From Candidatus Moraniibacteriota bacterium (lineage in GTDB: Bacteria; Patescibacteriota; Minisyncoccia; Moranbacterales; UBA2206), in assembly GCA_026396175.1 (NCBI GenBank), contig JAPLXG010000006.1, forward strand, positions 2,895-66,894: a DNA stretch of 64,000 nucleotides, read 5' to 3'. This document shows, in pieces, positions 50,335 to 51,501 of this stretch. The notes under the pieces were generated by a model. That model was not told the origin of the DNA, made no database searches, and saw nothing but the letters and a program-made list of their open reading frames with translations. Position 1 is the first letter of the stretch. Every line of letters begins with the position of its first letter. The translations under genes and the position numbers were made by a program.

Positions 50335-50424
50335 ATAGTTTCTTATGGCCTTCGTGGTGCCATGCCTCGTCGGCAGGCCCCACACCATTTCACGTTTGAT
50401 TCCAAGTTATTTTTAAAATATATT

Positions 50425-50507
50425 GGGGGTATGGTGGAATTGGTATACACACATGCTTGAGGTGCATGGCCTTTATCGGCATGAGGGTTCGAGTCCCTCT
50501 ATCCCCA
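50425..50507 (+). tRNA. tRNA-Leu (anticodon GAG), type II
   Basis: Loop TTGAGGT, long variable arm; followed by CCCCACAC/GTGTGGGG hairpin. Confidence 0.8.
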
Positions 50508-50603
50508 CACAGAAATGGTGTGGGGCAAATATTCAACATATAATAAATAGAAGTTTACTTAGTTTTTTGTTACATGTTTTATGCTATATGTTGTATGACC
50601 CAG

Positions 50604-50676
50604 GGATCCTTAGCTCAATGGCTAGAGCACCTCGTTTACACCGAGGGGGTTATAGGTTCGAGTCCTATAGGGTCCA
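50604..50676 (+). tRNA. tRNA-Val (anticodon UAC)
   Basis: D-arm GCTCAATGGCTAGAGC, loop TTTACAC. Confidence 0.85.
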
Positions 50677-50680
50677 CAGT

Positions 50681-51003
50681 GCCGAGTTAGCTCAGTGGTA
50701 GAGCAGAGGACTGGTTTTCGGTCCGTTCCAGAGTAATTTGGAAATGAAAATTGGATGAATTCGAGGAAGCCTAAAACTAATTTTATTAGAAATGGTAATC
50801 TCGAGCTAAGCTTCAAAGGGCTTAAGGTTTTGAAGAAAGTGTAGAGACTAGCAAGTGAGTCCCAACAATAATCTTGCGCTAGCGTCCAATATCCTATTTT
50901 GCTAGTTAGTAAAAGGATAATGAAATAGTCCGATCCTTGGGGAAACTCAAGAAAAATAACAAGGAAAATCCTTGTGTCCCCGGTTCAATCCCGGGACTCG
51001 GCA
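50681..51003 (+). tRNA. tRNA-Phe (anticodon GAA) interrupted by a ~251-nt group I intron between U33 and G34
   Basis: 5' exon 50681-50712 (GCCGAGT acceptor .. GAGGA-CU), 3' exon 50964-51003 (GAAAA-UCCUU .. ACUCGGC-A); the joined sequence matches the canonical tRNA-Phe pattern. Confidence 0.75.
50713..50963 (+). ncRNA. group I intron (tRNA anticodon-loop type)
   Basis: P1: exon GGACU pairs intron GGUCC (50720-50724) with U.G at the splice site; R-like GUAGAGACUAGCAAG (~50841-50855) and S-like AAAUAGUCCGAUC (~50923-50935) give P7 GACUA/UAGUC; terminal G at 50963. Confidence 0.7.
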
Positions 51004-51071
51004 CAAATTGCATAAAATTGAAAGTCCGTTCGCGGGCTTGCCCGCCGTAGTCACGCTTCGGCGGGACGCAG

Positions 51072-51143
51072 GCGGGTGTCGTATAGTGGCTATTATATCA
51101 GCCTTCCAAGCTGAGGAGGGGGGTTCGATTCCCCCTACCCGCT
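51072..51143 (+). tRNA. tRNA-Gly (anticodon UCC)
   Basis: Near-identical architecture to E. coli tRNA-Gly(UCC): GCGGGTG..GTATAGTGGCTATTA..CTTCCAA..GGTTCGATTCC. Confidence 0.85.
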
Positions 51144-51154
51144 CAGATAAAATA

Positions 51155-51187
51155 GAAGTCTCCCTAAAAAGGAGATTTTTATTTTTT
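51155..51187 (+). terminator. rho-independent terminator after the tRNA cluster
   Basis: GTCTCC CTAAAAA GGAGAT TTTTATTTTTT; second terminator at 51344-51381 (CTCAAAAGCCCCGG..GGGGCTTTTGAG). Confidence 0.7.
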
Positions 51188-51318
51188 GTGTAGATTATTG
51201 ATTCAGGGGAATCGAAGGGTATTTCAGAAAAGTGAACTTCTTCACTTTTCTGAAAACCCAGGCTCTGAGGGAGGAGCGAAGCCTGTGCCGTAGGCACGCG
51301 CGTAGCGACGGATGAAGA

Positions 51319-51340
51319 GGATTCCCCCTACCCGCTCCAA
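51319..51340 (+). repeat. duplicated 3' end of tRNA-Gly (T-loop + acceptor + CCA), part of a ~160-bp tandem duplication
   Basis: GGATTCCCCCTACCCGCTCCA repeats tRNA-Gly 51123-51143; each copy is followed by a terminator and the direct repeat GGGGAA(A)TCGAAGGGTATTT (51225 and 51385). Confidence 0.6.
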
Positions 51341-51501
51341 AAAACTCAAAAGCCCCGGGATATTTCTGGGGCTTTTGAGTTTAAGGGGAAATCGAAGGGT
51401 ATTTTTAAAAAGCAAGTTTGAACTGATAACTATGCTTGTTTGGGCAATAGCGGGTATTGTGATAAAATATAGAGCGTTGAGATAAAAGCTAGGATAAAAA
51501 G

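Follow-up and report, generated by a model that had tools for sequence, protein, structure and literature searches.

In a 64,000-nucleotide (nt) stretch of contig JAPLXG010000006.1 from a Candidatus Moraniibacteriota bacterium, hereafter the window, the gene for the phenylalanine transfer RNA (tRNA) with anticodon GAA, tRNA-Phe(GAA), is split in the anticodon loop by a 251-nt insert between U33 and G34. Judged by its sequence, the insert is a genuine group I intron with a compact P1-P10 core and an additional hairpin, P7.1. The tRNA-Phe 33/34 group I intron is a class published in 2026 and not a new host class, and the window intron is very probably a functional member of it. Our analysis adds the breadth of this class, the covariation of P1 and P10 with the anticodon arm, and the presence or absence of the intron among close relatives.

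The split tRNA-Phe gene and the fold of its intron

In intron mode, ARAGORN called tRNA-Phe(gaa) at 50681-51004 with a 251-nt intron following position 33, i(33,251), and the joined exons gave a canonical 72-nt tRNA-Phe(GAA) cloverleaf. With intron mode off, the program reported eleven tRNAs in the whole window, tRNA-Phe not among them. The Rfam tRNA model did not report the split gene in the window scan either, and ARAGORN found no other tRNA-Phe gene in the 64 kb. A genome whose split gene is missed by default tRNA finders wrongly seems to have no tRNA-Phe, which biases completeness estimates for Patescibacteria. The gene consists of the following parts.

50681-50712, + strand: 5' exon of tRNA-Phe(GAA), standard positions 1-33, ending C32 U33; called by ARAGORN (-i) and identical to the 5' part of intron-less alleles in relatives.
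50713-50963, + strand: group I intron of 251 nt without an open reading frame (ORF), its last base G50963 being the terminal guanosine (omega-G); supported by RF00028 (77.7 bits), by ARAGORN and by homology to 55 other Phe-33/34 introns.
50964-51003, + strand: 3' exon, from G34 to the discriminator A73, CCA not encoded; placed by sequence, ARAGORN and the intron-less alleles.

As the first base of the intron is a G, the window sequence leaves a one-base ambiguity at the boundary. The introns of four homologues (loci L028, L049, L075 and L081 of the scan described below) start with A, and the splice boundary is therefore U33/G34 and not one base further. The predicted ligated product has the anticodon loop CUGAAAA, with ...GGACU joined to GAAAAUCC... 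at the junction. Two ORFs listed for the region, 50622-50816 and 50947-51297, both on the - strand, extend into tRNA genes and are spurious. Since the 251-nt intron holds no internal ORF, it has no homing endonuclease of its own; all 12 endonuclease-bearing tRNA introns in a bacterial survey are longer than 500 bp (PMC13011429).

A covariance-model search, the check proposed in an initial annotation made from the sequence, matched the Rfam family RF00028 (Intron_gpI) at 50703-50952 (+) with 77.7 bits against a gathering score of 50, covering model positions 1-253 in full; the E-value was 5e-18 for the whole window and 5e-20 for the region. A permissive scan of 50550-51200 on both strands gave no competing Rfam family. 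In the P1-P10 structure that we drew, which includes the P3/P7 pseudoknot of the core, all 14 helices contain standard pairs only in the window sequence, and the unconstrained minimum free energy (MFE) fold recovered P1, P2, P4, P5/P5a, P6a, P7.1, P8 and P9. The helices, all on the + strand, are listed here with their behaviour in the alignment of homologues.

50708-50724, P1: exon GGACU 50708-50712 with intron GGUCC 50720-50724, the wobble pair U50712.G50720 lying at the 5' splice site.
50715-50719 with 50964-50968, P10: intron UUUUC with exon-2 GAAAA, in the drawn structure; covaries with exon 2.
50726-50732 with 50737-50743, P2: 7 bp, GUAA tetraloop; 7/7 pairs changed on both sides, 94.6% of cells paired.
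50750-50757 with 50883-50890, P3: 5' strand AUUGGAUG with 3' strand CGUCCAAU; 4/8 pairs changed on both sides.
50761-50766 with 50799-50804, P4: 100% of cells paired, 4 pairs changed on both sides.
50770-50771 with 50794-50795, P5: drawn structure and MFE fold.
50777-50781 with 50785-50789, P5a hairpin: drawn structure and MFE fold.
50805-50806 with 50839-50840, P6: drawn structure.
50811-50817 with 50829-50835, P6a: 7/7 pairs covary, 95.7% of cells paired.
50846-50850 with 50926-50930, P7, the presumed guanosine-binding helix: GACUA (in the invariant, 'R'-like GUAGAGACUA) with UAGUC (in the conserved, 'S'-like AUAGUCC).
50851-50855 with 50873-50877, P7.1, extra hairpin between P7 and P3': GCAAG with CUUGC; 5/5 pairs covary, about 93% of cells paired; the conserved loop has 17 nt, UGAGUCCCAACAAUAAU.
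50891-50895 with 50914-50918 and 50897-50899 with 50911-50913, P8: proximal pairs covary, distal ones are poorly aligned by MAFFT; 67% of cells paired.
50936-50941 with 50946-50951, P9: 6 bp, GAAA tetraloop; 6/6 pairs covary, 95.2% of cells paired.

For the covariation analysis, 56 sequences (the window intron, a published Doudnabacteria intron and the introns of 54 scanned loci) were aligned with MAFFT without fitting to any structure. Standard pairs were formed by 89.3% of cells, compared with 31-50% when the 3' partners were slid by 1-3 columns, a difference inflated by the derivation of the structure from the window sequence. Counts of two-sided changes suffer less from this bias and are the stronger evidence: 50 of 71 pairs had changed on both sides against 26-36 in the slid controls, and so had 669 cells against at most 175. 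None of 500 shuffles matched the observed pairing values. Covariation was seen at every pair in P2, P6a and P9 and at several pairs in P3, P4, P7.1 and the proximal part of P8. In P3, the window copy carries a G-C to A-U change in common with L005 and L110.

The ten-base guide sequence UUUUCGGUCC (50715-50724) pairs with both exons, one half in P10 and the other in P1, and both helices change together with the anticodon arm of the host tRNA. The U.G wobble at the splice site is present in 56 of 56 sequences, while its neighbours in P1 switch with the anticodon stem, from A-U to C-G in 11 sequences and from C-G to U-A in one. Likewise, P10 switches with the anticodon loop, being GAAAA/UUUUC in 39 of the 56 and GAAGA with UCUUC or UCUUU in 10. 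All 56 family members also end in G, by construction, as the search pattern requires this base.

Bulge-helix-bulge tRNA introns are short, typically interrupt position 37/38 and are cut by a splicing endonuclease. An intron of this archaeal/eukaryotic, protein-spliced type was considered for the window and rejected on the grounds of the site (33/34), the length and the group I model match, the bulge-helix-bulge motif itself not having been specifically searched.

These results bear out most of the initial annotation. Its exon and intron coordinates, with a 251-nt insert at U33/G34, proved correct to the base by sequence and by ARAGORN in intron mode, and the joined exons do form the textbook tRNA-Phe it described. 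Its group I assignment agrees with RF00028, ARAGORN and the covariation in 56 homologues; P1 with the U.G wobble, P7 as GACUA/UAGUC, the 3'-terminal G at 50963 and the absence of an ORF were all recovered. P10 was missing from it and was found here.

Proposed splicing and the case for a functional intron

By the established group I pathway, the precursor would be transcribed together with tRNA-Leu, tRNA-Val and tRNA-Gly, and the guide 5'-UUUUCGGUCC-3' would bind the end of exon 1, GGACU (P1, with the U33.G wobble), and the start of exon 2, GAAAA (P10). This pairing would engage the entire anticodon loop as well as the 5' side of the anticodon stem. Held in P7, a free guanosine would then attack after U33; G50963 would replace it in P7, and the 3'-OH of U33 would attack after G50963. 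Exon ligation should yield the anticodon loop CUGAAAA and a normal tRNA-Phe. We infer self-splicing of the window intron (guanosine attack, replacement by G50963 and ligation) from this pathway and from published assays on related introns.

Several observations weigh against a functional intron. Besides the inflated fraction of paired cells, P7 and much of the core are nearly invariant in the 56 sequences and give no covariation signal either way, and the MFE z-score of the intron alone, -1.95 relative to shuffled sequences, is modest. The published splicing assays concern Asn and Asp introns only and include no Phe-33/34 intron (PMC13011429). Moreover, 64 kb of the genome are visible, so that a second, intact tRNA-Phe gene might lie elsewhere and do the work of a window copy that has lost splicing or never had it in this host. 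The closest relatives do use an uninterrupted gene, yet we consider such a dead copy extremely unlikely. The catalytic core of the window intron has all its helices intact, and the exons are 72/72 identical to intron-less alleles. In published tables Patescibacteria genomes have one tRNA-Phe each, the single one of GCA_016699995.1, found with every tool, being the split one, and copies of one anticodon with and without an intron rarely occur together in one genome (PMC13011429). In addition, compensatory changes in at least 55 other genomes require selection for folding.

Many group I introns depend on proteins in vivo, as with CYT-18 and Cbp2, and a true group I intron at this site could likewise need a protein cofactor or an RNA chaperone in the cell. 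Its AT-rich composition (37% GC) and its stability only modestly above that of shuffled sequences would agree with such a need. On the other hand, related Asn and Asp introns of Patescibacteria, similar in size and composition, self-splice in vitro with guanosine triphosphate (GTP) alone (PMC13011429), and the family has conserved two GNRA tetraloops, GUAA in L2 and GAAA in L9, which are the usual self-contained brace of a small group I core. As no intron-encoded or adjacent maturase-like gene was found at the locus either, we regard protein-dependent splicing as very unlikely and favour an intron that would splice by itself.

Relatives, subgroup and breadth of the Phe-33/34 class

The initial annotation had considered a tRNA-Phe host unusual and had listed tRNA-Leu, fMet, Arg and Ile genes as known hosts, a list that predates 2020: the number of intron-interrupted bacterial tRNA classes was then raised from 4 to 21 (Williams 2020, bioRxiv 10.1101/2020.01.27.920355, a source used here for its class count only). 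A survey of 95 complete Patescibacteria and 4,934 complete bacterial genomes (Nakagawa et al. 2026, mSystems, PMC13011429) records, for Doudnabacteria GCA_016699995.1, a group I intron at site 33/34 of tRNA-Phe(GAA) (Table 1, Table S3), the one Phe case in this complete-genome survey. Together with at least 54 further species representatives in our scan, it shows that the host is not unusual. No literature match was found for the tFind-style class name 'Phe.2Ug'.

The other half of that proposal, a host resembling the Candidate Phyla Radiation (CPR), was sound. The genes flanking the window locus are syntenic with metagenome-assembled genomes (MAGs) labelled Moraniibacteriota or Parcubacteria, and the intron falls in the Moranbacteria intron cluster of a rough neighbour-joining tree. 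From these sequence comparisons the host looks like a Moranbacteria-like member of the Patescibacteria (CPR). The GC content of the window is 41.6%. The sequence is also present in SRR20698638, SRR20698639 and SRR20698641 from the source community.

The Doudnabacteria Phe intron, itself predicted from sequence (PMC13011429), shares with the window intron the tRNA, the site, the phylum, the lack of an ORF and the P1/P10 logic. It aligns with the window intron over the full length at 66% identity, and the P7.1 loop motif GUGAGCCCAACAAUAAUC is common to both. In contrast to the window intron, it comes from another class of Patescibacteria, has 211 rather than 251 nt and lacks the P9 hairpin, and its anticodon stem and loop, CGCCU followed by GAAGA, are matched by a different guide, UCUUCGGGCC. 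The tRNA-Asn(GUU) 35/36 intron of GCA_016700035.1 (PMC13011429, Fig. 4) is 67% identical to the window intron and has the same layout of P2, P4-P6, P8 and P9 as well as a P7.1 with the conserved loop. It differs in its tRNA and in its site, 35/36 instead of 33/34, and hence in its guide; its splicing was demonstrated experimentally, whereas the window intron is known from sequence. In the rough neighbour-joining tree (217 core columns), all Phe introns group together, apart from Asn, Asp, Met and Tyr introns, and the Asn introns are their sister group. The Phe-33/34 introns form a single family that occurs widely among Patescibacteria and has relatives in the tRNA-Asn 35/36 introns of this phylum.

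The IC3 subgroup comprises Leu, fMet, Arg and Ile introns, and its core has no insertion between P7 and P3'. Like the window intron, IC3 introns (cyanobacterial tRNA-Leu(UAA) 34/35, tRNA-fMet 33/34, Azoarcus tRNA-Ile 36/37) are ORF-less, about 200-250 nt long and inserted in the anticodon loop after a U, in the fMet case also at 33/34; their P1 and P10 involve anticodon-loop bases, and L2 and L9 are GNRA tetraloops. In the Azoarcus intron these loops make L2-P8 and L9-P5 contacts. An IC3 assignment was nevertheless rejected: the window intron has the extra P7.1, the IC3 references show only about 61% identity and lie outside the Patescibacteria cluster, and no Patescibacteria tRNA intron in the published survey belongs to subgroup IC, nearly all being IA (PMC13011429).

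Extra helices after P7, as in the Phe family, occur in IA2 introns such as those of the phage Pf-WMP3 DNA polymerase gene (PMC3428280) and Bacillus nrdF (PMC2248736), where P7.1 and P7.2 linked by G-U-A are the signature of the subgroup (PMC3428280). Two hairpins joined by A-GUA were found in six Phe-family members (L025, L028, L081, L095, L105 and L107), for example ...CCCGUAAGGG-A-GUA-CUGCC.... In the window intron and most other Phe introns, P7.1 is the only extra hairpin, and its conserved loop of 17 nt (GUGAGYCCCAACAAUAAUC) also occurs in some published Asn introns. The window intron has one covarying extra hairpin (50851-50877), not two GUA-linked helices, and it differs from the IA2 introns further in the absence of P9.1/P9.2 and of an endonuclease ORF and in its host, a tRNA and not a protein-coding gene. 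By analogy we call it IA-like; this label is taken from the P7.1 hairpin, an additional element of the type characteristic of subgroup IA, and a general statement of PMC13011429.

To see how far the class extends, we scanned a single genome of each GTDB species with a pattern consisting of a G followed by the tRNA-Phe 3' exon, which an uninterrupted gene cannot match as U33 precedes G34; exon 1 was then located with a loose anchor. At least 119 loci were obtained. Among these, at least 54 contain a complete tRNA-Phe(GAA) split at 33/34 by an insert of 213-283 nt, and a further three run into the end of a contig or locus. The introns closest to that of the window among the matches listed are those of L005 (91% identity), L110 (90%), L074 (85%) and L012 (82%). 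Host labels among the matches listed include Moran-, Falkow-, Magasanik-, Berkel-, Peregrini-, Gracili-, Lipton- and Saccharibacteria, Paceibacterota and the Parcubacteria or Patescibacteria group. Ten matches are listed as 'uncultured Gammaproteobacteria' or 'Bdellovibrionales' (L020, L029, L035, L064, L084, L101, L102, L108, L119 and L120). These labels are doubtful, since at least L029 and L035 have flanking genes in common with the window and with Moranbacteria contigs.

The gathering score of RF00028 was passed by 16 of 18 diverse members tested, with 52.7-109.8 bits. The two others, L005 and L045, are clear homologues, L005 being the locus with 91% identity to the window intron. Because these homologues miss the gathering score, surveys based on Rfam only undercount the Phe intron class.

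Seven short Phe introns of 211-221 nt (Doudnabacteria, L010, L037, L044, L046, L049 and L114) lack P9 and have their terminal G about 10-25 nt after P7; if active, they would be unusually minimal group I introns. At L090 (7145-7837), in a Moranbacteria MAG, ARAGORN called a tRNA-Leu(CAA) with a 620-nt insert directly 3' of the split tRNA-Phe. This insert could be a second intron, long enough for an endonuclease gene. Six loci with seemingly long 'introns' (L016, L036, L063, L091, L104 and L111, from Acidobacteriota, Omnitrophota and other non-Patescibacteria) were excluded, as they consist of an intact tRNA-Phe plus a copy of its 3' half within about 190-470 nt. Elements that integrate at tRNA-Phe usually leave such a duplicated 3' half as their footprint.

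Gain, loss and the surroundings of the intron

Metagenomes were scanned for the spliced junction of the window tRNA-Phe. In 14 syntenic contigs an uninterrupted tRNA-Phe gene was found in the same Leu-Val-Phe-Gly setting as in the window, identical at 68-72 of 72 positions to exon 1 and exon 2 joined as CU followed by GAAAA. These natural intron-less alleles confirm the predicted ligation product. The closest relatives by protein identity, L128, L133, L136, L129, L135 and L123, all have an intact tRNA-Phe gene; compared with the window, their RluA-like synthases are 90-94%, their L19 proteins 88-91% and their penicillin-binding proteins 81-85% identical. For the nearest intron-bearing relatives among the matches listed (L005, L110 and L012), the values are about 50% for RluA and about 71% for L19. 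In a host tree built from two proteins by neighbour-joining, without support values, sister tips differ in having a split or an intact gene (L110/L124, L005/L134 and L029/L130), and the window branches within a set of intron-less genomes, with 93.5% amino acid identity to L133, while L133 and L128 share 89.7%. Because split and intact genes alternate in this way and the nearest relatives are intact, the intron is dispensable in the window lineage, and its gain or precise loss has happened repeatedly among close relatives.

Recent gain of the intron by the window lineage through lateral transfer, in which a tRNA-Phe allele with the intron was taken up from a related Patescibacterium and recombined in, is a plausible history but falls somewhat short of being the probable one; the alternative is an ancestral intron that was precisely lost in the sister lineages. 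The nesting of the window among intron-less relatives and the alternation in three other sister pairs speak for gain, provided that an unsupported two-protein tree is trusted. The introns of L005 and L110 match that of the window at 90-91% identity, although the RluA-like proteins are only about 50% identical, but structured RNA evolves more slowly than protein-coding DNA, which makes this comparison indecisive. L012 and L031, at an equal host distance, have introns with only 82% identity, which hints at some lateral movement. Against transfer, intron similarity broadly falls with host distance and the intron clusters follow host labels as in vertical descent, a trend that fits descent with loss; the intron also lacks a homing endonuclease. 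A phage vector is unsupported, as the split tRNA-Phe had no blastn match in 50,697 phage records and none of nine pattern matches in IMG/VR was a group I-split tRNA-Phe. Co-conversion of the T-stem (CCCCGG/CCCGGG versus CCCCAG/CCTGGG) was considered as a sign of transfer and proved uninformative, both variants being present among intron-less close relatives.

A further, rather doubtful idea is that the endonuclease-less intron is turning over at present among close Moranbacteria-like populations, by reverse splicing or by allele exchange through homologous recombination after DNA uptake. Current turnover would explain the alternation of split and intact genes between sister genomes. If it takes place, the locus would be a natural system to measure ribozyme gain and precise loss in ultra-small genomes, and would count against published suggestions that such introns are hard to lose or regulatory. 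The finding leaves the general understanding of group I introns unchanged; it bears on the role of such introns in reduced genomes, be it as frozen passengers, as regulators or as mobile elements.

The split gene is part of a tRNA cluster at 50425-51144 on the + strand.

50425-50508, + strand: tRNA-Leu(GAG).
50604-50677, + strand: tRNA-Val(UAC).
50681-51003, + strand: the split tRNA-Phe(GAA).
51072-51144, + strand: tRNA-Gly(UCC).

The gap between the end of tRNA-Val and tRNA-Phe is 3 nt, and the order Leu-Val-Phe-Gly is kept in relatives. Probably, the four genes form one transcript. A promoter-like site at 50396-50424 and a hairpin with a T-run at 51159-51190 match consensus sequences, but such matches are no more numerous than in shuffled sequence, and co-transcription is therefore suggested by the spacing and the conserved gene order.

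One viral contig in IMG/VR, L145 (6225-6471; IMGVR_UViG_3300029305_002717), has two interrupted tRNAs according to ARAGORN, a tRNA-Phe carrying 49 extra nt behind position 33 and a tRNA-Thr carrying 29 behind position 37; neither insert matched the group I model. The spacer between tRNA-Phe and tRNA-Gly in the window is GC-rich (57% over 51004-51071), and 51022-51068 folds into two hairpins. Since 51022-51068 is neither repeated in the window nor conserved in related loci, it is unrelated to the intron. The tRNA-Gly 3' of tRNA-Phe has the anticodon UCC in the window, whereas the corresponding gene of the syntenic intron-less loci L123-L136 has GCC. The last 18 nt of tRNA-Gly (GATTCCCCCTACCCGCTC, 51127-51144) are found again, unchanged, at 51320-51337, and a second direct repeat, GGGGAATCGAAGGGTATTT, lies at about 51206-51224 and 51385-51404. 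Each copy of the tRNA-Gly end is followed by a hairpin and a T-run, and the region is partly conserved in L133. Taken together, these features give 51127-51404 the appearance of either a local duplication, about 190 nt in length, or an att-like remnant left by an element that had integrated in tRNA-Gly.

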